A DNA stretch of 20,172 nt. Source: a virus. The stretch is taken from the IMG/VR virus record IMGVR_UViG_3300028644_000051, positions 1 to 20,172 of that record, one strand, 5' to 3'. Of the stretch, positions 5,319 through 17,474 are shown piece after piece. How positions within the stretch are numbered: position 1 is the stretch's first letter; every line of letters starts with the position of its first letter. The position numbers were made by a program, and so were the translations under genes. The notes beneath the pieces were generated by a model, which saw only the letters and a list, made by a program, of their open reading frames with translations, did no database searches and was not told the DNA's origin.

Positions 5319-5359
5319 TCCCTCCTTACGCTAAAATTTCAACCCTCCCTATTTAATAA
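5319..5359 (-). promoter_or_regulatory. Putative promoter and SD site for the fibre cassette
   Basis: Minus strand TTATTAAATA (5350-5359) followed by an AGG-rich SD before ATG 5310. Confidence 0.5.
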
Positions 5360-6251
5360 TGGCGTAAAATTCGACGGGTGCCGGGTTCGGGGACCGGGCG
5401 AGCATCGCCCGGGCCCGTTTCGTTGCCACCCGGTAAATCGTAGTACACCGGCACGCGATGTGGAAAGGAGAGCGCTGGTGCTCGACGTTGTCCTTCTGAA
5501 GGTGGGTTGTGAAGGGTTGGTCGAGGGGGATCCACTTCTGTGCCTCCTTTGCCAGACATTCAGCGTCGACCCGGTCGTCTCCCACGGTGATCGACGACTT
5601 CTCAATGGGGATCCCCTTCTTCGCGATGGTGTCCGCGACCTCCCGGCTCGCGGCCTCGTAGGCGGTGGCGGTCTCGTACGTGGCGATGAGCTCGGCCCGG
5701 TTGCGGAGGTGATGCTGGGGGACCGGGGTGCCGAACGCGGCATACCGGGCGACCATGCGGGCCGCGATCTCCGTGTAGGAGGCGCCCTCATAGAGCCCCT
5801 GGTAAACGATCCCCTTCATGATCTTCAGGGTCGTGGCGTCGATCTTCTTGATCTCGTTGAGACAGTAGGTCTTGAGGTATCTCTGGGCCGCCGGGTTGCG
5901 AAGGGAGAAGGACATGGCGTACCCAAAATCGAGGAGCCGGTGCTTGATGGCGCCCTCCATGGCCGCCATCAGGATCTCGCGCATGGCGTCGGCCGTATCG
6001 ACCGCGAACTCGTCGAAGATCGTGATCATGAGCCCCGCGACGGCGTCCCCGAGCCCCTCGCGACAGACGGACTCGTTCAAATGGGCGCCCCGTTCGCGGA
6101 GTTTTCGCTCCAGGACGATCCGCTGATTGTCGAAATGCACACCGGCCACCCGGGCCATGCGCGACCGGAGCGGGGCGAGGAAGAGCTCGCGCCGGGCCAC
6201 CTCGACCCGGACGAGGGCTTCGGCCGCGGCCTCCGCGAGGGCGAGGGTCAC
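5349..6251 (-). CDS. Phage head morphogenesis protein, MuF/SPP1 gp7 family (300 aa)
   Basis: RAELIATYETATAY, TVGDDRV, WIPLDQPF and FHIACRC motifs; GTG at 6251 overlaps the upstream stop (GTGA), so I place the start there rather than at 6341. Confidence 0.85.
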   Translation of the reverse strand: MTLALAEAAAEALVRVEVARRELFLAPLRSRMARVAGVHFDNQRIVLERKLRERGAHLNESVCREGLGDAVAGLMITIFDEFAVDTADAMREILMAAMEGAIKHRLLDFGYAMSFSLRNPAAQRYLKTYCLNEIKKIDATTLKIMKGIVYQGLYEGASYTEIAARMVARYAAFGTPVPQHHLRNRAELIATYETATAYEAASREVADTIAKKGIPIEKSSITVGDDRVDAECLAKEAQKWIPLDQPFTTHLQKDNVEHQRSPFHIACRCTTIYRVATKRARAMLARSPNPAPVEFYAIIK

Positions 6252-6463
6252 ACCTTCCGCCCCCAGAGGTCCACGATGGTCACCGCGGGCGCGTCGGCCG
6301 TGGCGACGGCCCCGGGGCGCGGCCGGAACTCCCCGCACCATTGATCGCGCGAGACACAGGGGTAGCCCCTCCCGGGCCAGGGCGGGTGCCGGCGGCAGTC
6401 GCCGGTCCCGAGCTTCGCGTCCTCAATGGCGGCGAAGCGGCAGTCCTCGCACCGGGGCGGCAC
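6248..6463 (-). CDS. Small Cys-rich protein (CxxC...GxCR...WCGEF), 71 aa
   Basis: Four conserved-looking Cys; coupled to MuF by a GTGA overlap. Confidence 0.7.
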   Translation of the reverse strand: MPPRCEDCRFAAIEDAKLGTGDCRRHPPWPGRGYPCVSRDQWCGEFRPRPGAVATADAPAVTIVDLWGRKV

Positions 6464-6589: not shown

Positions 6590-7624
6590 TTACCCTTCAT
6601 TCTTCGGCTCCTCCGCGATCACGTCGATCATGAGATACGGGCGGCTCATCATTCCGTCCAGGTTGACGATCGACTTTCTGATGATCTTCCACTTCTTCTT
6701 CCGGGGATAGAGGATCTCGTACTCGTCCGTGTTCATGTACCGGGCGGGCTCGTCGTTCCTGGTGAACGCCCGGAGGAGTACGCCCTTGTACAGGTGGTTC
6801 GCGTCGCCGACGGTCGAAGAAAAATCGCGCGAGATCCGGGCCGATAGCGACCACGACTGATAGCCGGCGTCCGTGTAGAAGTCCCCGACCTTCGCGGCCA
6901 GGAGGCGGGCCCCGGTCGTGTCGCCGACCCCGCGGAAGATCTGATGGCCCTCCTCGACGCGCCCGATCTTAATGACATAGTCGAGGTGGGGCATAACCTC
7001 CATTTCCATGTCGAAGTCGGAGTCGAGGGCCCCCTTCGCCTTGTCGCGGCAGTAGTTGTTAATCTCGTTGTGAAACTCCGTCTGGTACCCCAGGAGGGTG
7101 TCGAGCTCGATGTCGCTGATCTCCCCGTTCTGTTGGGCGAGCTCGTGTGGGATCCACTTCGGCGACTCATACAGGTAATCGCCGATCGCGTCGTCTTCTT
7201 TATCGCCCCACCCGGCCACGTCGACATAGCCCTCGTCCCCGGGCTTGAGGACGATCGGGGTCGCGCTCGTCTCGGGGTCGGTCGCCGTCTCCCCGTCGCC
7301 TTTCGGGTGCCCTCCCGGCAGGTCTTCGATCCGCGTCCCCTTGGGGCAATCGCCGGATATGCAGACGCGCCGGCCTTTGATGGTGCGCCACTCCGTCCCG
7401 GGATACGCTTCGGCCTCGGCGATGGCCGCGAGGGGCTCGAACCGAATCCCGTGGTCGCCGTCGACGGGCGAGGTGTGCTTGTTCTCGCCGTCCCAGATGG
7501 CGAACGGGATCCCGTCGGGGAACGCGGCGCACTTGAACCGCGTGGTCTCGTCCAGGTGCCGGCAATGGGCGCACACCGGGGAGTAATACAGGTGCTCGTG
7601 TGCCGAGTCGTCAATCCCGATCAT
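6590..7624 (-). CDS. ADP-ribosyltransferase (R-S-E, VIP2/exotoxin-like) with an N-terminal Cys/His metal-binding domain (344 aa)
   Basis: Y....HNEINNYCR, IFRGV (Arg), GYQSWS (STS-like) and DEYEIL (ExE) motifs; N-terminal CAHCRH...CAAFPDGIP..I..G...H..P..GD.GI.FEP; ATG 7624 overlaps the portal stop (ATGA). Confidence 0.85.
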   Translation of the reverse strand: MIGIDDSAHEHLYYSPVCAHCRHLDETTRFKCAAFPDGIPFAIWDGENKHTSPVDGDHGIRFEPLAAIAEAEAYPGTEWRTIKGRRVCISGDCPKGTRIEDLPGGHPKGDGETATDPETSATPIVLKPGDEGYVDVAGWGDKEDDAIGDYLYESPKWIPHELAQQNGEISDIELDTLLGYQTEFHNEINNYCRDKAKGALDSDFDMEMEVMPHLDYVIKIGRVEEGHQIFRGVGDTTGARLLAAKVGDFYTDAGYQSWSLSARISRDFSSTVGDANHLYKGVLLRAFTRNDEPARYMNTDEYEILYPRKKKWKIIRKSIVNLDGMMSRPYLMIDVIAEEPKNEG

Positions 7625-10134
7625 CGTATCCCCATCCCCTTTCCGCGGATCCACCGGGTGTAGTGAATCCCGGGATACTCGGACGCCACGATCTGCATGG
7701 TCTCGTGTGTGTGCTCATTGCTCGCCTCTTTCTCGCCCATCTCTCCAGACCGGACCTTCGGGCGATATTTCGCATACAGGGAGCCCTCGGCGACCGCGTG
7801 CCGGGCAAGGGCCAGGTGCGCGTCGTGATCGGAGTACGCCGTTGTGTCGAGGGAGAAGACGTACTTCGGCGAGACGACGACGTGCTCGGCGATCCCGTGC
7901 GTTACGGTCATCGCGAGATCCTTATCCGAAAAGGAATTGTCGCTCGGGTGGTTGTGGATCGCCGTGCATCCCGGGAACTTCGCCGCGTCCTCGGGGTCGA
8001 ACGGGACGCCTCGCACGTCCCCGGTCCCGTAGAAGACGGTCGAGCCGTCGGGGGCCACGACGAGGAGGCTCTCGACCCGGTCCTCGGCGTGCCATTCGGT
8101 GAACTCGTCGAGCCGTTTCCGCACGGCGGCCGGCCGGCCGCGCTCGTCGACGGGCCCGGGTGCCAGTTGCTCCGGTGCCGGTGCCGGTTCCGCCCCGAGC
8201 GTCGACTGGGCGGTCCCGGGGCCCATCGGGCCCGTGCCGGCCCCCTTGTCCTTAATGTAGACCCGCCGGCCGTCCTTCAGGGTGACCCACTTCCCCGGGG
8301 CCGTGGGATCGAAGGCTTCGGCGAGCTCCGCCTCCACCAGGGCCGTCCGGGCGACCTCCTGGAGCGCGGTCGCGACGGCCGAGAGCGACTCTTCGATCCC
8401 TTCTTCGACGTCGTTGTCCCGGGAGCGCTTCGTCGGCTTCTTCACGCCCTTCTTCGCCGGCGGCGCGTCCTCGTCGTCCTCGTCGGGCTCCTCCCCGCCG
8501 AGCTTCGCGGCCTGGGCCTGGCGGGCGAGCTCCAGCTCGGGCGGGTTCTCATGCCGTTCAACCTGGCGGGCGATGTCCTCGTCGTCCATCTCGGCGATCG
8601 CATCGTCGACGTTCGGGATGTTGAGGGCCCGCAAAAGCAACCGCTGGAAGGTGGCCCGGTCCATGATCCCGGCGAGAGACCCCGTGCCGGCGGTCGCGGC
8701 GCTGATGATGGCGGCGACCTCCGAGACCGGGTCGTGTTCGAGGATCGCGGGGAACTCGACCGTGACCTCGGCGACCTCTTCCCGGACGGGCCCGAGGTTC
8801 GCGTCGGCGGCCTCCTTCTTCGTCGCCTTCGTGCCGGGCGCGGCCTTCGCGGCCCGGGCTTCCGTGACCTCGCGATCCGTCTCGTGGTCCTTCACGACCC
8901 GGCGGACGGAGACGAGCACCTGGCGCCGGCCCCAGTCGTCGAACTCGACCTTGCCGGTGAGGGGGGCGAAGCCGTCGGCGAGCACCCGGGCCTCGACCGC
9001 GAACGACCCCAGGAGGGTGAGGGTATCGACCCACCACGCCTGACGGTCGAGCACGGCGAGCTCCAGGGGGCGCTCCATCGTCTTCGTGGTCGCGAGGTTC
9101 CCCGTACTGGGATCCCCGAGGAGGATATGCTCGGGGACGTCCGTGTCGGAGCACACCATGAGCGCGAAGCGGCGGGCCTCGTCCGCGCTCGTGGCGACCC
9201 CGGCCGTCCGGATCGGCTCCATGGTGACCCCGGGGGTCGAGGCGAGCGTGGACCCGGCCGGGATCGGCGTCCTCTTCTGGCGGTCGACGATGTCCGCGAC
9301 GGCGCGGGCCGCGGCCGGGTTCGCCCCGGTCGCTTTCCACGCGAAGGTCGCGAGGGCCGCGTTGATGCTCGCCACGTTGCTCAGGTGTTGCGTGTAGGCT
9401 TTGCCCCACGGGATCCCCGCCACGATCGCCGGGAGGCCGTACACGCCCTTTCCCGCGCGCGGGAGGGGCGCGTGGTAGAGCCGGTCGGTCCAGACGACGG
9501 GCGTCCCCCCGATCGTCTTCGGTTGCTTTTCGGGATTATGCCCGAGCGCCGGATACCAGTAGGTTTGGCTCTTTCCCGTACTCGTGCCGTCCTTCTGGAC
9601 CGTGTACTCCGTAAACGTCCGTTTCCAGTACCAGACCTTCCGCGGGTTTTTCGGGTCGCGGAGGTAGCCGGCGATCTCGCTGATCGGGACGGTCACGACC
9701 TCCACGGCGCCGAGCTCGTCGACCTGGCAGAGTAAGAATAAATTGCCGCCGATCTGGACCTGGATCTCCTTCTCGACCCGCCCCAGGTGGCCGAGCTCTC
9801 CCTGGTTTCGTTCGAGCCAGTCGGTGAGGACCGCGTTGACCTCTACCTGGTCCGAGGTGATGGTGACGCCCCGGCCCCAGACGAAGTGGCTCTTGACGTT
9901 GACGGCCCGGCGGATGAGGGCGTTCGCGTGGTACGCCTCGTAACAATTCCGCGCGGCCTCGCGGATCTGATCCACTGAATACTCGTCCTCGCCGTCGCCG
10001 AGCGCGAGGGTGAGGGTGAGGGGGTCTTTCCACGAGGCGTTCGCCGAGACGGCCTCGGTGAGTGAATCCTCGATAAACGTTTCTAATTCATCGATCCGTT
10101 CGGCGATCACCCGGTTGGAGACGCGGGCGGCCAT
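7621..10134 (-). CDS. Portal protein fused to a C-terminal JAB/MPN-like domain (837 aa)
   Basis: Portal-type N-terminal 550 aa (LIRRAVNVKSHFVWGRG, DVPEHILLGDPSTGNLAT..TMERP); acidic/basic low-complexity linker; then VESLLVV...IHNHPSDNSFSDKDL. Confidence 0.85.
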   Translation of the reverse strand: MAARVSNRVIAERIDELETFIEDSLTEAVSANASWKDPLTLTLALGDGEDEYSVDQIREAARNCYEAYHANALIRRAVNVKSHFVWGRGVTITSDQVEVNAVLTDWLERNQGELGHLGRVEKEIQVQIGGNLFLLCQVDELGAVEVVTVPISEIAGYLRDPKNPRKVWYWKRTFTEYTVQKDGTSTGKSQTYWYPALGHNPEKQPKTIGGTPVVWTDRLYHAPLPRAGKGVYGLPAIVAGIPWGKAYTQHLSNVASINAALATFAWKATGANPAAARAVADIVDRQKRTPIPAGSTLASTPGVTMEPIRTAGVATSADEARRFALMVCSDTDVPEHILLGDPSTGNLATTKTMERPLELAVLDRQAWWVDTLTLLGSFAVEARVLADGFAPLTGKVEFDDWGRRQVLVSVRRVVKDHETDREVTEARAAKAAPGTKATKKEAADANLGPVREEVAEVTVEFPAILEHDPVSEVAAIISAATAGTGSLAGIMDRATFQRLLLRALNIPNVDDAIAEMDDEDIARQVERHENPPELELARQAQAAKLGGEEPDEDDEDAPPAKKGVKKPTKRSRDNDVEEGIEESLSAVATALQEVARTALVEAELAEAFDPTAPGKWVTLKDGRRVYIKDKGAGTGPMGPGTAQSTLGAEPAPAPEQLAPGPVDERGRPAAVRKRLDEFTEWHAEDRVESLLVVAPDGSTVFYGTGDVRGVPFDPEDAAKFPGCTAIHNHPSDNSFSDKDLAMTVTHGIAEHVVVSPKYVFSLDTTAYSDHDAHLALARHAVAEGSLYAKYRPKVRSGEMGEKEASNEHTHETMQIVASEYPGIHYTRWIRGKGMGIR

Positions 10135-10246: not shown

Positions 10247-10513
10247 TTATTCCTGGGGGTGGGGCGGGGCGGTCGCCCCCTTCAGGCAGACGGAGCACAC
10301 GAAGGCCGACTCGCCATCGATCCGGCAGACATTGAGCTCCGCCTTCGGATACCCGCAGAGGTCGCAGGTCGTCTTGAGGGGGACGCCCCGCCCGAGGACG
10401 ACGATGTCGACCGCGGGGCGGGGAAACTTCCGACCGCAGTTGGGGCAGGTGATCCGATCCCTCCCGGCGTCCGATCGCCAGACATACGAGCAATGGGGGC
10501 ACGTTGCGATCAC
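10247..10513 (-). CDS. Double zinc-ribbon protein (4 CxxC pairs, 88 aa), paralogue of 12882-13133
   Basis: GTG at 10513 after a GGTGA SD; IATCPHC...ITCPNC...TCDLC...VCSVC; about two-thirds identical by eye to 12882-13133. Confidence 0.85.
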   Translation of the reverse strand: MIATCPHCSYVWRSDAGRDRITCPNCGRKFPRPAVDIVVLGRGVPLKTTCDLCGYPKAELNVCRIDGESAFVCSVCLKGATAPPHPQE

Positions 10514-10915: not shown

Positions 10916-11386
10916 TTACCGCCGCTTCCGCACCGGCTTTTTGTTGTCGTGGGCCCAAAAGTTCGGGTTTGTGGCCCTCTGCTGCTTCCAGTGGCTCGGG
11001 TTGTCGTTCCACCCCTCGTGATAGCCCATGTTATACGCCGAGGTCGTTCTGGCTTCGGTGTACGACACGCCCCGGATGCGGTCGAGCTTGCCCTGGCCGA
11101 GGCCAAGGCGGTAGTCGACCGAGCTCATGAGCTGTTGCCGGGCGAGTTCGCGCTTTCGCAAGGGGTATTTCCTCCCCAGGCGGGCCTTCTCGGCGTCGAG
11201 TGCGGCGAGGGCTTCCGCGGCGGCCTTGAGGCGCTCGTCTTCCGGGACGGACTTCTTGAGGTCGTTCCGGGTCATGCGGTACGTTACGCCGTCGTACGTC
11301 TCGCCGACGATCGCCTGGCCCGCGACCGGGTCGGGGTATGTGGTCCGGTTGGGTGCCGGCCGCGAGGACGCCCCACTTCCACCCAT
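10916..11386 (-). CDS. Basic hypothetical protein with N-terminal MGGSGASS tag (156 aa)
   Basis: GGAGG SD upstream; starts MGGSGASSR; ends KKPVRKRR. Confidence 0.85.
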   Translation of the reverse strand: MGGSGASSRPAPNRTTYPDPVAGQAIVGETYDGVTYRMTRNDLKKSVPEDERLKAAAEALAALDAEKARLGRKYPLRKRELARQQLMSSVDYRLGLGQGKLDRIRGVSYTEARTTSAYNMGYHEGWNDNPSHWKQQRATNPNFWAHDNKKPVRKRR

Positions 11387-11389
11387 GGA

Positions 11390-11761
11390 TCACGCCCTCC
11401 GGCGGATTGCAGCCACGATGCGCTCGAATACACTATCCGACAACCCCTTCTGATTGAAGGTTTTTGTCTTCACGTCGTACCAGACCTTTCCGAATTGGAG
11501 ATCCGTGGCGAGCGCCCTGGCTTTGCTATTGCTGATAGCCACGCCGTCGATAGACGCCGACGAGATGTTGCCCGTCCCGTAATAGGTTACATCGAGGCCG
11601 TAGAGCGACCGGAGATCGTTGAAGTAGATCCGATGGTTGTCCCCGCCGGTCCACTCCTTTCCGATCGCTTTCAGGCGCTCCAGATCGTCCGCGGGCGCGA
11701 TCGCCGCGTTCTTCGCGGGCGCCGACCCGGCCCCCTTGCTCGATGCTCCGTTACCTCCCAT
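11390..11761 (-). CDS. Hypothetical phage protein with N-terminal MGGNGASSKGAG tag (123 aa)
   Basis: Start set at ATG 11761 (SD GGCGGTGA); body has KEW.GG..HRIYFN...ISNSKA...KVWYD, a pattern I recognise from uncharacterised phage proteins. Confidence 0.85.
   Translation of the reverse strand: MGGNGASSKGAGSAPAKNAAIAPADDLERLKAIGKEWTGGDNHRIYFNDLRSLYGLDVTYYGTGNISSASIDGVAISNSKARALATDLQFGKVWYDVKTKTFNQKGLSDSVFERIVAAIRRRA
11726..11761. repeat. 36-bp exact repeat, copy 1 (encodes MGGNGASSKGAG)
   Basis: cccggcccccttgctcgatgctccgttacctcccat, identical to 15621-15656. Confidence 0.97.
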
Positions 11762-12077
11762 ATTTGTCACCGCCTGGTTGTGTTCTCTTTTCTCTTGTCC
11801 GCATATCAACATTTCCACATTTGTCCGGGGCTCCGACGCACCGGGCGCACGCGAGCACGGGCTCGTCCCCGACCGCGGCCGGCGCGAGGGCCTCCGCGAG
11901 CTCGTCGCAGACCTGGCACCGGGCGCGGCCGGGATAGACGACCGCCGGCCCGAGGGCCCGGGGCGTCACGTCCCCGCGCTTGTGCTTCCGCTGGCACCGT
12001 GAGCACGTCAGCCAGGGGGCCGTCGACCGGGCGACCCATCGGTGTCCACATATCGGGCATACGGCCGTCTTAACCAC
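11751..12077 (-). CDS. Divergent double zinc-ribbon protein (108 aa)
   Basis: CPICGHRW...LTCSRC...RCQVC...ACARC, same architecture as 10247 and 12882. Confidence 0.8.
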   Translation of the reverse strand: MVKTAVCPICGHRWVARSTAPWLTCSRCQRKHKRGDVTPRALGPAVVYPGRARCQVCDELAEALAPAAVGDEPVLACARCVGAPDKCGNVDMRTREKRTQPGGDKYGR

Positions 12078-12210
12078 CCCGGGGGGCCGTGCGGTATTCG
12101 CAGTTCGGATCGCACGGGCCCGCCGGAAGGGGCGTGCGCCTGGCGTTGCACCAGAGGCCGCACCCGCACCCGGGCATGGGGCCCCGGTGGGGGCAGTAGT
12201 CGTCGTTCAT
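12070..12210 (-). CDS. Cys-rich microprotein (46 aa, MNDDYCPHRG...)
   Basis: ATGA overlap at 12207-12210; six Cys. Confidence 0.55.
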   Translation of the reverse strand: MNDDYCPHRGPMPGCGCGLWCNARRTPLPAGPCDPNCEYRTAPRGG

Positions 12211-12506
12211 TGGTCGATCGGCTCCCATGTCCCCTTCGGCGCGACCATGGCCCAGATCTCGCGGCCGGGTTCGGCGGCGATCTTTCCCCGGGCCGGCCGG
12301 ATCATGAGGGCCGCGGTCCCGTCCTCGTTCGTCGTCTTCGAGCGTGCGATCAAGACATCGTCCGCGTCGCACTCACAGAGGGCTTCCACGATCGCGATCG
12401 TGCGCTTCAGGTAGTCGAGCCGGAAGCGCCCCACTGGGATCGGGTTCTTGCTCTCGGCACTACCGACGCCGATCGTGTTGATCTCGTTTGCGAGGATCCC
12501 GGTCAT
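12207..12506 (-). CDS. Small protein resembling a single sliding-clamp (PCNA-like) domain (99 aa)
   Basis: ATGA overlap at 12503-12506; GRFRLDYLK...D.V.I...L.I....MVAP echoes the PCNA C-terminal F.LDYL...LAP pattern. Confidence 0.45.
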   Translation of the reverse strand: MTGILANEINTIGVGSAESKNPIPVGRFRLDYLKRTIAIVEALCECDADDVLIARSKTTNEDGTAALMIRPARGKIAAEPGREIWAMVAPKGTWEPIDQ

Positions 12507-12718
12507 GCCGACCTCCCGGCCGTGCCGGTGCCCGGACACCGATGGAGCCCGCCCCTGATGGCCCGCATCACGGCCGCGGGGTCGTCGGCGTGGTCGCCGC
12601 ATATCCAGACCGCGGGGAGCCGGCCGGCGCCGTCGAGGTCGAGGTGAAACCATCCCCCGGCCATGAACTCGGCGGGCCCGGCGGGCGCGGGCTTGTTGCA
12701 GACCTCGCACGAGCTCAC
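12503..12718 (-). CDS. Small zinc-finger-like protein (71 aa; CEVC...ICGDH)
   Basis: GTGA overlap at 12715-12718; CxxC plus CxxH. Confidence 0.65.
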   Translation of the reverse strand: MSSCEVCNKPAPAGPAEFMAGGWFHLDLDGAGRLPAVWICGDHADDPAAVMRAIRGGLHRCPGTGTAGRSA

Positions 12719-12882
12719 GCGTACCCCTCCCGCCAGGCGATCGGGCCGGGCCCGTTGCCGGTCTTCCGGTCGGCCGCGTGCGAGACCTCCAGGGCGGCCT
12801 TCGCCTTCGCGATCGCCTCGGGGACCGTGTCGCATTTGCCGGTGCGGTGCGCGAGCACGGGCCCGCCACGCCCCGAAGCCAT
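12715..12882 (-). CDS. Hypothetical microprotein (55 aa, MASGRGGPVLAHRTGKCDTVPEAIAKAKAALE...)
   Basis: Not in the ORF track; TGATG overlap at its start and GTGA at its end fill the gap exactly; high GC3. Confidence 0.6.
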   Translation of the reverse strand: MASGRGGPVLAHRTGKCDTVPEAIAKAKAALEVSHAADRKTGNGPGPIAWREGYA

Positions 12883-13133
12883 CAGTCGTCATTGAGCAGA
12901 TCCTTCGCGCAGCGGTTGCAGACGAACGCCGCCTCGCCGTCAACCCGGCAGACGTTCAGCTCGGTGTATGGGTAGCCGCAGACGTCACAGGTCGATTTGA
13001 GCGGCACCTTCCGACCGAGCACCTCGATCACAGGCGCGGGCCGCGGGAACTTCCGCTGGCAGGATGGGCAGGTGATCATCTCACCCTTTGCCCGCGTCTC
13101 CCACTCGTACCCGCACTTGGGGCAGGTTGCCAT
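12882..13133 (-). CDS. Double zinc-ribbon protein (CPxCG type, 83 aa)
   Basis: CPKC, CPSC, CDVC and CNRC; GGAGG SD. Confidence 0.88.
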   Translation of the reverse strand: MATCPKCGYEWETRAKGEMITCPSCQRKFPRPAPVIEVLGRKVPLKSTCDVCGYPYTELNVCRVDGEAAFVCNRCAKDLLNDD

Positions 13134-13134
13134 C

Positions 13135-13575
13135 TCAACCCTCCTTCACGATCCGGATCGCCCAGTACGGCCCGACATTGATCGGGGCGTACCTCTCTCC
13201 CGTCCGGTTGTAGTGGTTGAACTCGCGGGCCAGATCCTTCGCATCCCCCTCGGCGAACGGTTTGATCTGGCAGAGGCATTCGCTTTCATCGAGGACGGGG
13301 GGGGCGATCTTCGCGGCGCTTTCTTCTATCTCGGTCGCCACCGCCCACATCACACGCGCCCACTCACGGGCGGGCATCGGGGAGCCGTCCCCGTGAGTGC
13401 CGATTACGAGGTGGGCCGGTATCGGGCACTCCGTTTTGGCAGACGGGGCGAACACGACGCCGACCGGCCGGGCGCTGTCCAGTGTGCGGAAGGCAAAGAT
13501 CGTGCCGCCGAGCCGAGCCGCATCCACCTTTTCAACCATTTCGACGAATTGGGTTTGGCGCTTGGTTGCTGTCAT
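13135..13575 (-). CDS. Hypothetical protein (146 aa)
   Basis: Strong SD GGAGGT and an upstream TATA box. Confidence 0.8.
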   Translation of the reverse strand: MTATKRQTQFVEMVEKVDAARLGGTIFAFRTLDSARPVGVVFAPSAKTECPIPAHLVIGTHGDGSPMPAREWARVMWAVATEIEESAAKIAPPVLDESECLCQIKPFAEGDAKDLAREFNHYNRTGERYAPINVGPYWAIRIVKEG

Positions 13576-13589
13576 GTGTCTTACCTCCT

Positions 13590-13618
13590 ACTACTATAGT
13601 AGTTAAGAGTATAAATAA
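13590..13618 (-). promoter_or_regulatory. TATA box (TTATTTATA) plus palindrome ACTACTATAGTAGT
   Basis: Perfect 14-bp palindrome at 13590-13603 between the TATA box and the SD of ORF 13575. Confidence 0.65.
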
Positions 13619-13662
13619 CTATTGGTAGACCACTCGTAGCCGCACTTGGGGCAGGTGACCAC
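13603..13662 (-). pseudogene. Truncated zinc-ribbon gene stub (VVTCPKCGYEWSTNSYLYS)
   Basis: TCPKCGYEW matches the start of 12882-13133 (26 of 27 nt identical), then runs into the AT-rich promoter and stops. Confidence 0.7.
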
Positions 13663-13664
13663 GA

Positions 13665-13906
13665 TCAGTCGAGGATCCGCTTCCGCTCGGACCACGCGTA
13701 GTCGACCAGCTCGTCCACCGTCGTGATCCCGCGCTCGACCTCATCGGCGAAGCCGTCGGCCTGAACGCGGCCGTTGTAGACGTGGAACCGGACATTCCCC
13801 CGACCGTCGTCGCCGAGTCCAGGCAGAAAGGCCCGTCCCGGTTCGCCGCGTCGCAGGACTCGATGGTCTCGCGGATCATCTTCTTCGACCATTTGTGCGA
13901 TCCCAT
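13665..13906 (-). pseudogene. Gene of about 80 aa split by an apparent 1-nt frameshift near 13820
   Basis: GGAGG SD and ATG 13906; GC3 bias follows frame MGSHKW...GPFCL, then switches to frame GLGDDGRGNVRFHVY...RKRILD ending at 13665. Confidence 0.6.
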
Positions 13907-13929
13907 GATTCAGTCCTCCTCTTCGGCCA

Positions 13930-14271
13930 TCAGGCGCACCTCCAGCACCCGCACCGCTGGCTCCAGGAGGTCGGATCGCCCGTGTGCCGGCACGTCCCGA
14001 CATAGAGGTTCGTCTCCTTTCCCGGGAGGCGCTCGGGCGCGAAGTCGGCGCACGTCCCGCACCACTCGCGCGAGAGCGCGTCCTCGGTTGCATCCAGGGC
14101 CCGGCGCTTCTCCGCCAGGTCGCGCTCGGCGAGCTCGATCTCCGCCGCGATCGTCGGGTCGGGGGCCCCATGCTCGCGCACGGCCTCCAGGCGGCCGAGC
14201 CGGGCCTCCGCGGCCTCGACCGCGGCGCGCGCGAGCTCGACCCGCGCTGTGTGGTTGTCGGTGATGGTCAT
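13930..14271 (-). CDS. Coiled-coil protein with a C-terminal Cys cluster (CGTC...GTCR...CGCW), 113 aa
   Basis: GGTGA SD; first gene after a palindromic operator. Confidence 0.8.
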   Translation of the reverse strand: MTITDNHTARVELARAAVEAAEARLGRLEAVREHGAPDPTIAAEIELAERDLAEKRRALDATEDALSREWCGTCADFAPERLPGKETNLYVGTCRHTGDPTSWSQRCGCWRCA

Positions 14272-14283
14272 TCAGTTGTCACC

Positions 14284-14330
14284 GACTACCATATGGTAGT
14301 CAGAGAGAAAAAGGTTTTGATTTTGTTTTC
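14284..14330 (-). promoter_or_regulatory. AT-rich promoter-like region plus perfect palindrome GACTACCATATGGTAGTC
   Basis: 18-bp palindrome at 14284-14301; upstream AAAACCTTTTT is a weak BRE/TATA match. Confidence 0.6.
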
Positions 14331-14511
14331 AATAGAGCGCGAACGAGAGGCAGAGGTCGCACATGAGGACCGCGTCGCCGTCGACCCGGACCACGTTGAC
14401 CTTCTCGAAGCATCGGTCGCACATATCGCACGCGGCCCCGTTGGCCTTCTTATCGGGCCGGAGCACGAGGCGCCCCAGGGGCTCCACCACGGCCTCACGG
14501 GGCCGGCTCAC
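14329..14511 (-). CDS. Zinc-ribbon protein matching the C-terminal half of the double-ribbon paralogues (60 aa)
   Basis: GTGA overlap with the DUF4417 stop; VEPLGR...CDMC...VNVVRVDGDAVLMCDLC aligns to IEVLGR...CDVC...LNVCRVDGEAAFVCNRC. Confidence 0.75.
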   Translation of the reverse strand: MSRPREAVVEPLGRLVLRPDKKANGAACDMCDRCFEKVNVVRVDGDAVLMCDLCLSFALY

Positions 14512-15275
14512 GCGAGCGCCTCCACGAGCTCCCGCCGGGGCCCGTCCGGCGTCTCCAGGTGCACGAGGGGCCCGTCCTGGGGGATGAGCCGGGCGTCCCG
14601 TCTGACATATTTGTAGAGGGGCGAGACCTTCGCGACGAGGTCGGGCTTGTAGGGGTAGAAGTGCTCCGGCACCTCCCCGAGGAGCTTCTCGATTCTCCCG
14701 TAGCATATGACGGCCCGCGGGTGGATCCGGTCGAGCATCTCCTTGAGCCCCGCCTTGAACATCGCCCGCGCCTCGCGCTCGCGGTGGACGCCGACGGTCG
14801 AGACCGCGACCATGGACCCCTCGGGGATCCCGTCGAAACAGAACGAATACGTCTTGGGCCCGGCCCACGAGACGATCGGGATCACGGGGATCCCGTTCGC
14901 TTGCCAGTAGGCGCCGAGGAGGCGCGAACGGTAGACGTTATTCCGCTGGACGTGGATATTCCAGTCGCGGAAGAGGGAGAAGTCGGGCGAGAATATCCCG
15001 GCGAACGCCTGGATCTTGGGTAAATAAAACTCCGGCCGGCGCCAGAGTTGTTCAAATCGATAATCCTCCGTGTAGAGGTGCACGAACTTCCCCGCATAGA
15101 GCCGGGGCCGGCCCTCCCAGATCATGATCTCGGCCGGCGGACTCAGGAGGGTGTCGTGGATGATCGGCATTTCAGAATCATCCGTGACGTCGACATAGTC
15201 GAGAAGCCGGGTGTTCTGGGTGTCGAGCGACCCGCACGGCTTCACGCAGTTCCGCATGGCATAGCCGGCGCCCAT
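14508..15275 (-). CDS. DUF4417-family protein (255 aa)
   Basis: VHLYTEDYRFEQLW, SPDFSLF, NVYRSRLLGAYWQANGIPVIPIVSW, FCFDGIP and VAVSTVG motifs, characteristic of DUF4417. Confidence 0.85.
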   Translation of the reverse strand: MGAGYAMRNCVKPCGSLDTQNTRLLDYVDVTDDSEMPIIHDTLLSPPAEIMIWEGRPRLYAGKFVHLYTEDYRFEQLWRRPEFYLPKIQAFAGIFSPDFSLFRDWNIHVQRNNVYRSRLLGAYWQANGIPVIPIVSWAGPKTYSFCFDGIPEGSMVAVSTVGVHREREARAMFKAGLKEMLDRIHPRAVICYGRIEKLLGEVPEHFYPYKPDLVAKVSPLYKYVRRDARLIPQDGPLVHLETPDGPRRELVEALA

Positions 15276-15656
15276 CTACGTCGCCTTCTTCCTCTTCCGG
15301 GCGTCCGCCGCCTTCTTCCGGGCCTTCTCGGCGTTCGCCAGGGCCTTATCGATCGTTGATTCCATCGCCTTCACGGTCGCCGGCCCCCCGCCCTTCTTGG
15401 GGTAGCCGTACCGACTCAGCCACTTGAGCTGGTCGTAATAGAGCGGAGCGATGTAGCTCCCGTCCGTCTTTCGCCGCAGGATGATCCCGCGGTAGTTGTA
15501 ATCAACGAACCCGTTTTGTGCGGCGAGCTTGCGCCCGGCAACGGTCGCAGTCTCGGCCGGCATGTCGCGCGCCGGCATCGTGTAAAACCGCTTCGATGTC
15601 ACGGGGACGGTTGCCCCGCCCCCGGCCCCCTTGCTCGATGCTCCGTTACCTCCCAT
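15276..15656 (-). CDS. Basic hypothetical protein with N-terminal MGGNGASSKGAG tag (126 aa)
   Basis: SD GGAGGGTG; stop abuts the DUF4417 ATG; Lys/Arg-rich tail ARKKAADARKRKKAT. Confidence 0.85.
   Translation of the reverse strand: MGGNGASSKGAGGGATVPVTSKRFYTMPARDMPAETATVAGRKLAAQNGFVDYNYRGIILRRKTDGSYIAPLYYDQLKWLSRYGYPKKGGGPATVKAMESTIDKALANAEKARKKAADARKRKKAT
15621..15656. repeat. 36-bp exact repeat, copy 2
   Basis: Identical to 11726-11761. Confidence 0.97.
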
Positions 15657-15724: not shown

Positions 15725-17074
15725 TCACCAGGACGTGATCGGAGCGGGCACCTCGTCATAGACCGTGGCCTCGTATTCAATGTCGAGCATCAGGTCCGTT
15801 ATGGCCCACACCAGGGCGTCGACACGATCCGGCGACCGCATACCCTGGCCCGGTACCCACTCTGTCATTTGATCTTCGAGCTCGGCGAAGACGCCGACGT
15901 GATGGACGAGCCCTTGAGCATACAGGGCGCTCACGGGGTCGGCGCGGGCTTCTTTGCTATGGGACGCCCGGACGGCCCGGTACGGTACAAAGACGTTGGC
16001 CGCGTTCGCGCACGTCCCGACCACATACCCAACCATCTCGCCGCCGTTGTTGACCTCGCCCACGACCTTGTTCGCCTCCCACCGGGAATAGGCGCTCACG
16101 GCTTGCGCGCCCCACTCCCCGGGCGTCCCGCGGATCGTCACGTCGTCGAGGACGTACCCGTGGCCGTCGGCACCGAGTCCCACGACGAGGATCCCGGTCT
16201 CGGCGGACTCCTCTCCGCTGGACGCTTCGGGGTCGACGCCGACGACGATCCGGACGAGCTCGGGGAGGGCCGATACCCGGTTGGCGTCGATGATGGCCCG
16301 GGTCCAGAGGGCCCCGGGGTTGTCCTCCAGGAGCTCGGCGTTCAATTCCTGCCGGCCGAGCCGCGTCCCCTCGTATTTCTTGATGATCTGACGGAAGAAG
16401 CCCGGGGCCAGGTTGGCCCGGTTGTCGTAGGTCGAGCCCCGAACGACGATGCAGAACGGATCGGCAACGAGATCCTTGATGATCTTGGTCGGCCGCGGCG
16501 TCGTGGTAATGCAGCACTGGGGGTTTTCTCCCAGGCGGAGGCCGAACTGAAGCATATCCCAGGTGTCGGGGTATTTCCAGGCGGCGAGCTCGTCGGCCCA
16601 CGCCCAATGGAACGCGGGCCCGCGGAGCGCGTTCGGCTCCTCTCCCGAATAGAGGAGGGCCGTGGACCCGTTCGGCCATTCCAGCCGGCGCTTCCCGGGC
16701 CGGTATTCTGGCATGAAGTCCTCGGGACTGTCGGCGAGGATCCCCGAGACCCCCTCGACCATGACGTCGCGCACGTCCGCCGCGGTCCTGGCGACCATGG
16801 CGCCCCGGCTCCCGGGCATCTCCCGGGCCTTCTCGATGCACCACTCGGCGCCGCTCCGGCTTTTTCCAAACCCTCTGCCGGCCAGCATGAGCCAATACGA
16901 CCACTCACCGGCCGGCGGGAGTTGGTTATCCCTCGCCAGGAGGAGGCGCCAGTCCGTCGCCAGCCTCTTCGCCGTCTGAGGGCTCAGGCTCTCTATGAAC
17001 GGCCGGCGGAGCTCCGGCGGTAAAGACCTTATCGAGGACCGAAGCGAGCTCGGCGTGATAGTTTCGGACGTCAA
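15725..17074 (-). CDS. terL: Terminase large subunit (449 aa)
   Basis: Walker A LAGRGFGKS, Walker B AWADE, CCITTTPRP, nuclease motifs VVGVDP and SPDRVDALVWA; TTG start uncertain. Confidence 0.96.
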   Translation of the reverse strand: MTSETITPSSLRSSIRSLPPELRRPFIESLSPQTAKRLATDWRLLLARDNQLPPAGEWSYWLMLAGRGFGKSRSGAEWCIEKAREMPGSRGAMVARTAADVRDVMVEGVSGILADSPEDFMPEYRPGKRRLEWPNGSTALLYSGEEPNALRGPAFHWAWADELAAWKYPDTWDMLQFGLRLGENPQCCITTTPRPTKIIKDLVADPFCIVVRGSTYDNRANLAPGFFRQIIKKYEGTRLGRQELNAELLEDNPGALWTRAIIDANRVSALPELVRIVVGVDPEASSGEESAETGILVVGLGADGHGYVLDDVTIRGTPGEWGAQAVSAYSRWEANKVVGEVNNGGEMVGYVVGTCANAANVFVPYRAVRASHSKEARADPVSALYAQGLVHHVGVFAELEDQMTEWVPGQGMRSPDRVDALVWAITDLMLDIEYEATVYDEVPAPITSW

Positions 17075-17474
17075 TGGGCCCGCCGTCCTTCCCGGTCAAT
17101 TCGACCCGTTGCGCGGCATAGAGCCCCTGGAGCTTCGCACGTTCGCCCCGGACCCGGACGAGCGCGGCCTCCGCGGCGATCCGGGTCGCGGGGGTTTGCT
17201 CCGCGTCTTCGGCGATCGCCAGAAGGTTCGCCTCCGAGGCGTTCAGGCCGGCGATCTCGTTGGCGAGCGCGTCCTCTATATCGATCTGGGCGTGCTTCCG
17301 GCGTTCCGCGATAATGGCTTTGACGTCCCGGACGACCGTGGTGTGGTCGCACCCGAGCATTTCGGCGATCTGCCTCGTGGTCTTCTTCTTGCGGTACTCT
17401 TCGGCCACGATTGCTCTCCGGCCGGCTATCTCCGCACGTTTCTGTGCTTCGTTGCCTTTTCCGCGTCCCGCCAT
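16926..17474 (-). CDS. terS: Terminase small subunit with an N-terminal HTH (182 aa)
   Basis: HTH TTRQIAEMLGCDHTTVVRDVK, helical middle, ELTGKDGGPI motif; immediately upstream of terL. Confidence 0.85.
   Translation of the reverse strand: MAGRGKGNEAQKRAEIAGRRAIVAEEYRKKKTTRQIAEMLGCDHTTVVRDVKAIIAERRKHAQIDIEDALANEIAGLNASEANLLAIAEDAEQTPATRIAAEAALVRVRGERAKLQGLYAAQRVELTGKDGGPIDVRNYHAELASVLDKVFTAGAPPAVHREPEPSDGEEAGDGLAPPPGEG

Follow-up and report, generated by a model that had tools for sequence, protein, structure and literature searches.

Internal proteins of phage T4 carry an N-terminal capsid targeting sequence, which attaches to the scaffold core and is cut off by the prohead protease. Among phage-encoded effectors, MuF-fused polymorphic toxins (Jamet et al. 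2017, PMC5576092) and polyvalent proteins (Iyer et al. 2017, PMC5512222) have been described. DpdA, which acts in DNA 7-deazaguanine insertion, requires the ParB-like protein DpdB (PMC10164549), and Prp processes pro-L27 of Bacillota as well as capsid and scaffold proteins of the S. aureus phage 80alpha (PMC9405229, PMC5744158).

We analysed a stretch of viral DNA of 20,172 nucleotides, hereafter the window, in which three genes with a common N-terminal tag accompany a gene of the DUF4417 family. These ORFs are best explained as members of a widespread, undescribed phage module consisting of a label, effectors and DUF4417 within the DNA-packaging operon. The features are as follows.

5349 to 6341: separate MuF gene (PF04233), not fused to any tagged protein
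7621 to 10134, minus strand: portal, 837 aa (phrog_10963, E 3e-60)
10916 to 11386, minus strand: tagged gene 3, 156 aa, starting MGGSGASS
11363 to 11386, minus strand: codons of tag 3 (MGGSGASS), different from those of tags 1 and 2
11390 to 11761, minus strand: tagged gene 2, 123 aa, starting MGGNGASSKGAG
11738 to 11761, minus strand: codons of tag 2 (MGGNGASS)
14508 to 15275, minus strand: DUF4417 protein, 255 aa, standalone, without a ParB domain (Pfam E 1e-52)
15276 to 15656, minus strand: tagged gene 1, 126 aa, starting MGGNGASSKGAG, basic, with a K/R-rich tail
15633 to 15656, minus strand: codons of tag 1 (MGGNGASS)
15725 to 17074, minus strand: large terminase subunit (terL), Pfam Terminase_6N and Terminase_6C
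16926 to 17474, minus strand: HTH protein, likely the small terminase subunit, judged from weak HTH Pfam matches and its position upstream of terL

The sequence-only reading had described the three tagged ORFs as alike at the start only, preceded by Shine-Dalgarno sites, ending in Lys/Arg-rich tails and lying between terL and portal, with one abutting the DUF4417 gene. All of this was recovered. No BLASTP match was found between the bodies, which fell into separate clusters; SD-like GGAGG or GGTGA sequences lie 5' of each ATG; and the last 20 residues of the proteins from tagged genes 1, 2 and 3 contain 9, 5 and 7 Lys or Arg. The TAG stop of tagged gene 1 is followed directly by the DUF4417 ATG, and this downstream position of DUF4417 recurs in two other loci (L023 and L199). 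The description of the source as an archaeal virus was unsupported, since the top TerL matches are bacterial phages, with Brevundimonas first at 51%.

The consensus of the widespread phage tag is GGRGASSG. The window form, GG[N/S]GASS, is on its sequence a variant of this motif, with N or S at position 3, where Arg occupies 110 of 117 tags. The module was defined operationally by a start of M-G-[GS]-x-G-[AS]-S-S, or the same motif after a short leader, together with DUF4417 in the genome (as a rule next to the tagged gene and in the same orientation), placement within the packaging module (terS, terL, portal), and unrelated basic bodies with untagged homologues. The window shows all four: the tag motif, DUF4417, the packaging location, and basic, portable bodies.

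The association of DUF4417 with small genes that start MGGRG(A/S)SS, put forward in the sequence-only reading, turned out to be real and very strong in both directions. Starting from DUF4417, tagged genes were present at 66 of 80 loci with the broader motif and at 58 of 80 with the strict motif; each such locus has one to six of them, and of all these tags 106 share the strand of DUF4417 and none is on the opposite strand. A further nine DUF4417 loci have GGRG behind other leaders, and D29 is among the DUF4417 phages with no tag nearby. In the other direction, DUF4417 lay directly upstream in six of the seven true tag starts from a first pattern scan. A second scan gave 95 matches against an estimate of about one by chance (79 of 80 were real ORF starts), and DUF4417 was present in 59 of the 63 loci with enough flank, in 57 cases on the same strand and no more than 2.5 kb upstream. 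Five tag loci had no DUF4417 in the fetched stretch; three of them have it elsewhere in the record, and two are fragments less than 21% complete. The window DUF4417 was matched by 495 of 50,697 phage records, a base rate of ~1%. Tag and DUF4417 co-occur in ~83-94% of loci, in either direction, and the phages concerned differ widely in packaging genes and in host (Streptococcus, Mycobacterium, gut Bacillota, and the high-GC phage of the window among them). Having three tagged clients in one genome is common and not special: two or three tags occur in 23 of 80 loci (strict motif), and one locus has six (broader motif). Within the literature naming DUF4417 or matching the motif strings, we found no paper describing the pairing; PMC5576092 and PMC5512222 are not part of that literature.

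The 117 tagged proteins fall into ~55 unrelated body clusters. The proposal that the tag is a portable signal is borne out by tagged genes 2 and 3, whose body families are widespread without it. The body of tagged gene 2 belongs to a family of ~100 aa (RIYFNDL...YGTGNISSASLNG) whose members mostly have no tag; one tagged relative adjoins DUF4417 (L007). Tagged gene 3 has an orthologue at 96% identity that begins MGGRGASS, and remoter homologues lacking the tag. The body of tagged gene 1, with only two relatives among 1.8 billion representatives, is a rare, lineage-specific family. No Pfam domains were found in the three tagged proteins. Their net charges are +16, +5 and +12 (genes 1, 2 and 3); overall, a net basic charge is seen in 90% of tagged proteins and in 38% of background ORFs, and the tagged proteins end in K/R-rich tails. 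Tagged bodies elsewhere include ADPrib_exo_Tox (ADP-ribosyltransferase), Gln_amidase (Tox-PL1) and PBECR3 domains, and in other phages such effector domains are fused to MuF or portal. These observations support a description of the tagged bodies as effector-like, basic and swappable.

Both arrangements are also seen for phrog_5057. The window portal has an effector-like C-terminal extension, with a KWVTLKDGRRVYI linker and an HNHPS motif, that matches phrog_5057 (E 3e-4); in other phages this family is a free GGRG-tagged protein, and a tagged protein of locus L038 matches at E 1e-7. The portal of a relative has an ART domain in place of this extension. The window phage encodes an ART-like protein beside its MuF gene. 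It combines, in a single genome, this protein, three tagged cargos and a portal-fused effector.

Ten tags are preceded by a leader, M..(D/N)(L/I)Q(F/L/M)F, that matches the published Prp site, and one phage holds both the plain and the leader-bearing forms. About 10% of motifs lie behind leaders or 75-aa N-domains, the removal of which is putative. Because some tags stand behind a leader of the L27/Prp type, selection may act on the exposure of a Gly at the N-terminus. The tags in the window begin directly at Met-Gly without such a leader, which was seen only in other loci.

The AF2 model of DUF4417 has pLDDT >90 for most of residues 21-200. VIA comparison of this model gave Z scores of 9.6 for ArcTGT, 8.8 for DpdA, 8.8 for QTRT2 and 7.6 for TGT, with 159-167 residues superposed at 3.3-3.8 A on TGT/DpdA structures; other TIM barrels scored Z <=7.4, and in a second VIA pass TGT was level with other TIM barrels at Z 7.6. 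Foldseek against the PDB returned nothing significant. Among the BFVD matches, phage TGT-like proteins of DpdA type (queuine tRNA-ribosyltransferases) ranked 4, 6, 11, 21 and 39 (E 0.01-0.2). Pfam yielded DUF4417 only, with no TGT match, and a profile search of PDB sequences found ParB domains only, with no TGT or DpdA chains. The core of DUF4417 models as TIM-barrel-like and nearest to TGT/DpdA, with moderate likeness. A ParB domain is fused to half of the DUF4417 proteins.

Enzymes of the TGT/DpdA superfamily use one Asp as nucleophile and another as general acid/base. Residues D71, D98 and D104 of DUF4417 are invariant or nearly so. At three near-invariant positions the window protein departs from the family, with E70, N112 and I134. 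In locus L199, a homologue of tagged gene 1 begins MGSRGASSQG, and DUF4417 has E70 and Q112 yet accompanies Arg-containing tags; locus L205 mixes GGNG and GGRG tags. Covariation between the tag Arg and DUF4417 residues is not clean. Cassettes are swapped among close relatives, and tags are uniform inside one genome.

We propose, with a probability of roughly 0.55, that the tag is a portable N-terminal label on swappable effector cargo, that DUF4417 is its reader, and that the cargo travels with the packaged DNA. For the label to act, its N-terminus probably has to be exposed, mostly by Met removal and otherwise by cleavage of an L27/Prp-type leader. DUF4417 would then read the label or use it chemically; its predicted TIM barrel lies near the base-exchanging enzymes TGT and DpdA, and half of its members are fusions with a ParB-type NTPase, as DpdA acts with DpdB. 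Cargo would be loaded or tethered so as to reach the next host together with the packaged genome, making the label an alternative to fusing the same effector domains onto MuF or portal. Counting against this proposal are the disordered tag in a read-through model and the Str01 virion data (both given below), the moderate TGT likeness, the leaders and N-domains ahead of some motifs, the imperfect covariation, and DUF4417 phages such as D29 with no tag nearby. In a chemically explicit version, which is distinctly improbable, DUF4417 would be a DpdA-like DNA transglycosylase that opens a base position, and the Gly-Gly alpha-amine at the cargo N-terminus would resolve the intermediate. Bound covalently to the genome in this way, the effector would be packaged by the terminase and injected with the DNA, and ParB, when fused, would power DUF4417. 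Known chemistry comes closest in Fpg/Nei and T4 endonuclease V, which attack through an N-terminal amine, or in the HMCES crosslink.

A serious but minor contender is that the tag is an intracellular handle unrelated to packaging, with DUF4417 modifying or activating effector N-termini, or with the tagged proteins acting as adaptor or specificity subunits docked on a DNA-modifying DUF4417. The same co-occurrence data fit this explanation, as does the enzyme-like conservation of DUF4417 (18 invariant and 22 near-invariant positions), and the ParB fusion and DpdA-like fold point to work on DNA. Moreover, the sequence-only reading had suggested virion proteomics as a check, and published mass spectrometry of phage Str01, covering 12 virion proteins at stringent cut-offs in this one phage, contains neither the tagged APZ81907 nor the DUF4417 protein APZ81899. 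Against a purely intracellular role, the cargo domains are elsewhere fused to the head proteins MuF and portal, the genes are placed in the late packaging operon, and 55 body clusters are too diverse for the specificity subunits of one enzyme.

It is unlikely that structural proteins instead read the tag as a signal for targeting to capsid, portal or scaffold, with DUF4417 an unrelated DNA-modifying enzyme that shares the pre-terminase position. T4 provides a precedent for N-terminal capsid-targeting peptides, and the cargo types and basic charge suit head-internal proteins. Furthermore, co-folding, suggested earlier as a check on binding of the tag by DUF4417, gave no docking: in an AlphaFold model of the read-through tag1-DUF4417 protein, which serves as a pseudo-cofold, the tag was disordered (pLDDT <50 for residues 1-36; block means 27-36 for residues 1-30). 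However, tag and DUF4417 co-occur even when far apart in a record and across very different packaging genes and hosts, and position alone does not explain 94% against a base rate of ~1%.

The common start could also matter as nucleic acid, for instance as a cassette for translation initiation, as an element in the RNA, or as a recombination hot spot that spreads through gene conversion. The identity of all 36 opening nucleotides of tagged genes 1 and 2 would fit, as would the uniform tags within a genome and the cassette swaps among close relatives. Tag 3, however, keeps the peptide while differing at 10 of 24 bases, indicating that conservation in the window is at the peptide level. Synonymous variation affects each codon position across the 117 tags, with Arg encoded by AGA or CGN and Ser by AGY or TCN, and in leader-bearing forms the motif lies 8-15 codons past the start. 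The tag is conserved as a peptide, not as DNA, and we regard a nucleic-acid explanation as very improbable. The tagged ORFs look coding from their GC3 of 0.84, 0.77 and 0.86 (genes 1, 2 and 3) with GC2 of ~0.5; the same three genes were called independently on further contigs of this virus, and a degenerate tag pattern matched the coding strand of the window three times, the opposite strand 0 times and a reversed control 0 times. Chance likeness or mis-called ORFs, conceivable for a short, Gly/Ser-rich motif in a genome of 66% GC with many spurious ORFs, are contradicted by these controls and by the database scan and can be dismissed.

If label and DUF4417 do cooperate, phages would possess a general plug-in system in which eight N-terminal residues make any small protein the cargo of one conserved enzyme. 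This would account for a large class of unannotated terminase-side genes in phages of Streptococcus, Mycobacterium, gut Bacillota and high-GC bacteria, give a role to DUF4417 and many ParB-fused phage proteins, and allow new anti-bacterial or anti-defence effectors to be sought simply as ORFs starting MGGRG near DUF4417. The window is a natural variant, with tags lacking the near-universal Arg, a DUF4417 altered at three near-invariant sites, and relatives with swapped cassettes, and is therefore useful for testing which residues read the tag.

Compared with the known systems, ten tagged proteins resemble Prp substrates in having a leader that matches ML..(D/N)LQ(F/L)F; their P1' residue is Gly rather than Ala, their cleavage is putative, and the tags in the window are plain Met-Gly. 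DUF4417 would resemble DpdA/DpdB in pairing a TIM-barrel enzyme with a ParB-type NTPase, a likeness drawn from the predicted model. It differs in being about half the size of DpdA/TGT and in lacking both detectable sequence similarity to them and a Zn site motif; genes for 7-deazaguanine synthesis were not seen, and it has tagged proteins as obligatory partners in place of a free base. T4 internal proteins, which are packaged and injected, share the use of a short N-terminal signal on unrelated basic proteins (T4 head proteins are cited in PMC9503650). The T4 signal has no sequence likeness to the GGRG label and is removed, whereas the label seems to need exposure and pairs with DUF4417. MuF toxins and polyvalent proteins likewise comprise swappable effectors (ART, Tox-PL1, PBECR, RadC/JAB-like) whose genes neighbour those of terminase and portal and which are presumably carried inside the head. 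MuF polymorphic toxins are recognised by an effector C-terminal to PF04233, an arrangement absent from the three tagged proteins. Tagged cargo is free and carries an 8-residue label, in contrast to fusion with a head protein of ~100-300 aa, and the tag module has a dedicated enzyme-like partner in DUF4417.

The window is a 20,172-bp IMG/VR record of ~66% GC with an estimated completeness of 39%; its genes lie on the minus strand, and no tRNA genes were found in it. The three open reading frames (ORFs) with a common N-terminal tag that the sequence-only reading had described are all present, as listed here. Its assignment to an archaeal virus was rejected as unsupported, since nothing points to an archaeal host.

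Features of the window (coordinates, strand, description)
15725-17074, minus: terL
15276-15656, minus: tagged gene 1, N-terminus MGGNGASSKGAG
14508-15275, minus: DUF4417 (Pfam E 1e-52), starting directly after the stop of tagged gene 1
12882-13133, 10247-10500, 11751-12077 and 14329-14500, all minus: small paralogous double zinc-ribbon proteins
11390-11761, minus: tagged gene 2, N-terminus MGGNGASSKGAG, as in tagged gene 1
10916-11386, minus: tagged gene 3, N-terminus MGGSGASS
7621-10134, minus: portal
6590-7654, minus: ADP-ribosyltransferase (ART)-like protein of 354 aa, downstream of the portal; borderline ADPrib_exo_Tox match (23.3 bits vs a cut-off of 23.4)
5349-6341, minus: MuF-domain protein, beside the 354-aa ART-like gene, which precedes it

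All three tagged ORFs have coding-type composition (GC3 0.77-0.86), and on other contigs of this virus all three are also called as genes by independent callers. The tag pattern gave three matches on the coding strand of the window, 0 on the opposite strand and 0 in the reversed control. The remainders of the proteins (bodies) are mutually unrelated and basic, with K/R-rich tails at the C-terminus, and had no Pfam or PHROG match even at E <= 1; phage genomes had no tblastn match to tagged proteins 1 and 3.

The tag and DUF4417 were found together from both sides, which bears out the neighbourhood of DUF4417 and MGGRG(A/S)SS genes given in the sequence-only reading. A first scan, with a degenerate DNA pattern for MGGRGASS, returned 8 viral contigs; seven of these matches, all from low-GC phages, coincided with true ORF starts, and DUF4417 lay immediately upstream in six. 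The second used a pattern from the commonest codons (~1 chance match estimated) and matched 95 places, 79 of the 80 fetched being real ORF starts. Of the 63 second-scan loci with 1.5 kb or more of sequence upstream, 59 contain DUF4417, and 57 of those 59 have it in the same orientation and no more than 2.5 kb upstream. Five tag loci without DUF4417 in the fetched stretch were rechecked: in three it lies in another part of the record, and the remaining two are fragments <21% complete. For the converse test, relatives of DUF4417 were gathered with an alignment query, giving 80 viral loci. The strict motif MGG[RKNSQ]G opened at least one ORF in 58 of them (two tags in 19 loci, three in 4), and a broader motif, adding MGSRG and leader forms, was found in 66, with six tags in one locus; nine further DUF4417 loci carried GGRG behind other leaders. 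In the 80 loci, 106 tags lay on the DUF4417 strand vs 0 on the opposite strand, and the usual order was (ParB-)DUF4417, tagged gene(s), terS, terL, portal. As a base rate, 495 of 50,697 phage records (~1%) matched the window's DUF4417 by tblastn.

In cluster A mycobacteriophages, DUF4417 is gene 1 at the left genome end (392-2097 in phage D29, L001; 367-2066 in phage Ebony, L002). The gp2 of D29 has no tag, that of Ebony begins with VKNPSGGGKGSAGGGGSS, and in many relatives (L030, L072) DUF4417 is followed by an MGGRGSKGGPGPGT ART or Tox-PL1 protein. Literature titles and abstracts yielded nothing usable on cluster A gp2.

Comparison of related proteins shows that the tag is portable. The body of tagged protein 2 belongs to a widespread, mostly untagged ~100-aa family, some members of which start with MGGRGASS plus a ~45-aa linker; on one contig with such a tagged relative, a DUF4417 gene lies two genes upstream. 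Untagged homologues also exist for body 3, and a 96%-identical orthologue begins MGGRGASS. Body 1 is rare, with a single clear relative, which begins MGSRGASSQG. The sets of tagged genes differ between related contigs. L023, whose DUF4417 is 96% identical to the window's, has three tandem MGGSG genes at the site of one in the window and lacks tags 2 and 3; in L199, where DUF4417 identity is 61%, five MGSRG genes stand between terL and DUF4417; and L205, which shares 97% DNA identity with the window across 3.9 kb, carries MGGNG as tag 2 and MGGRG as tag 3. The tagged genes thus act as cassettes.

The 117 tagged proteins fell into 55 clusters. Their domains include ADP-ribosyltransferase (two clusters), Tox-PL1 glutamine deamidase, PBECR3 nuclease and DUF6883, and PHROG matches were to a zinc-finger protease PHROG and to phrog_5057. 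The latter also matches the C-terminal extension of the window portal, so one and the same effector type can carry the tag or be fused to a head protein. Net basic proteins made up 90% of the clusters vs 38% of background ORFs, with K/R-rich tails, a charge profile that by analogy resembles that of known DNA-associated head proteins. ARTs beside terminase genes have been noted in comparative work, with head packaging proposed (PMC9503650); the relevant passages of that paper do not mention the tag, and it is not among the papers naming DUF4417.

The C-terminal end of the window portal (7621-8265) is a swappable effector with a HNHPSDNSFSDKD (RadC/JAB-like) motif and the phrog_5057 match, and had no Pfam match even at E <= 1. 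In the 97%-identical relative (L205:4819-7389) the portal ends in an ART domain in place of the window's HNHPS domain, with the breakpoint near window position 8265. The 354-aa ART-like protein has a Cys-rich N-terminus and a EWRTIKGRRVCI motif resembling the portal's KWVTLKDGRRVYI linker. The zinc-ribbon genes (CPxCG...TCPxCxRKFxRP...CDxCGY...C..C) are interspersed with the tagged genes of the window, and small zinc-ribbon genes of this kind also follow a tagged gene on L006 and L007, two unrelated contigs; their products may act in immunity or regulation, or as a partner.

With a probability of roughly 0.55, we read the label as an address on effector cargo, of which DUF4417 would be the cognate reader or enzyme and whose purpose would be co-delivery of the cargo with packaged DNA. 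Functional coupling of tag and DUF4417 is more likely than the packaging step. Two results count against this reading, both from checks that the sequence-only reading had proposed. Its co-fold of DUF4417 with the peptide was approached by reading the in-frame TAG between tagged gene 1 and DUF4417 as Gln; in the resulting 382-aa product, folded with a DUF4417 alignment that ParB columns may have disturbed, the tag had pLDDT below 50 and no sign of docking. As to virion proteomics, mass spectrometry of phage Str01 virions had neither the tagged protein nor DUF4417 among the 12 proteins passing that study's filters. An intracellular enzyme-plus-handle system is a rival with which the Str01 result is consistent; the sharing of phrog_5057 with the portal speaks for the head. 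A structural targeting signal, with DUF4417 there by coincidence of position, would suit the undocked tag and is harder to reconcile with co-occurrence counted from both sides.

A third rival, that the shared start is a nucleic-acid feature, might draw on the identity of the first 36 nt from the ATG in tags 1 and 2; tag 3 differs from these at 10 of its first 24 bases with the peptide kept, and synonymous codon variation at every position across the tags indicates that selection acts on the peptide. The logo of 117 tags reads G 100%, G 90% (S 10%), R 94%, G 100%, A 78%, S 61%, S 61% and G 55%. A leader M..(D/N)(L/I)Q(F/L/M)F stands before ten of the tags and fits the motif published for cleavage by the L27/Prp protease, an enzyme that trims phage 80alpha capsid and scaffold proteins too (PMC9405229). 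Cleavage at this leader would expose the same GGRG N-terminus as Met removal, and one phage has leader-bearing and plain forms together. These sequences suggest that an exposed N-terminal Gly is the selected feature, a suggestion limited by the motifs, approximately one tenth, that follow some other short leader or a conserved ~75-aa N-domain, putatively removed.

A ~255-aa family directly after DUF4417 in loci L043, L059, L062, L078, L082 and L090 has this conserved ~75-aa N-terminal domain and then an internal GGRG(A/S)S (for example ...MEHLPLIELK followed by GGRGASSDTS), and may represent the tag in a pro-domain form. In Streptococcus phage Str01 (L208, KY349816.1; 36428-36838), the deposited annotation of STR01_54 begins at a Met inside the ORF (MSDKG...); the actual start, MGGRGASSGMSDKG, lies nine codons before that Met, and the ORF overlaps the DUF4417 gene at its end. 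Start-site calls can thus conceal a tag. Many terL genes in L024-L103 have a Walker A loop, GGRGS(L/T/G)KSSF, like the cargo tag GGRGASSG, a likeness that may have arisen by chance among Gly-rich phosphate-binding sequences or may point to phosphate or nucleotide binding by the tag.

A literature search found no paper naming the tag motif or linking DUF4417 to it; searches with the motif string gave nothing relevant, and only four of the papers covered name DUF4417 itself.

Across the DUF4417 family, 18 positions are invariant and another 22 nearly so, with many Asp, His, Arg, Tyr, Ser and Cys residues among them. The window protein has E70, N112 and I134, where other sequences have D (52/52), W (49/52) and T (50/52), and E70, N112 and I/F134 are found in the window and L023, whose tags lack Arg. 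Covariation with the tag Arg was rejected: the signal comes from one lineage and is not clean, because L199 has E70, Q112 and T134 yet its tags keep Arg, and L205 mixes GGNG and GGRG tags in one genome. No DUF4417 column separates GSRG from GGRG lineages.

The AlphaFold model of DUF4417 has pLDDT above 90 for most of residues 21-200. Foldseek against the PDB gave nothing at E <= 0.001. A VIA search against structure representatives ranked ArcTGT (Z 9.6), DpdA (8.8), QTRT2 (8.8) and TGT (7.6) best, only just above generic TIM barrels; a second pass, on Foldseek's list, returned generic TIM barrels only, with TGT tied at Z 7.6. In a viral structure library, the best non-family matches were phage queuine tRNA-ribosyltransferases. 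A profile search of PDB sequences found ParB domains only, and neither it nor Pfam placed DUF4417 in the TGT/DpdA superfamily by sequence. About half of DUF4417 members carry an N-terminal ParB domain, a fusion likewise noted in a preprint. DpdA needs the ParB-like ATPase DpdB (PMC10164549); the ParB-DUF4417 fusions thus mirror the DpdA/DpdB pair, though only as a resemblance.
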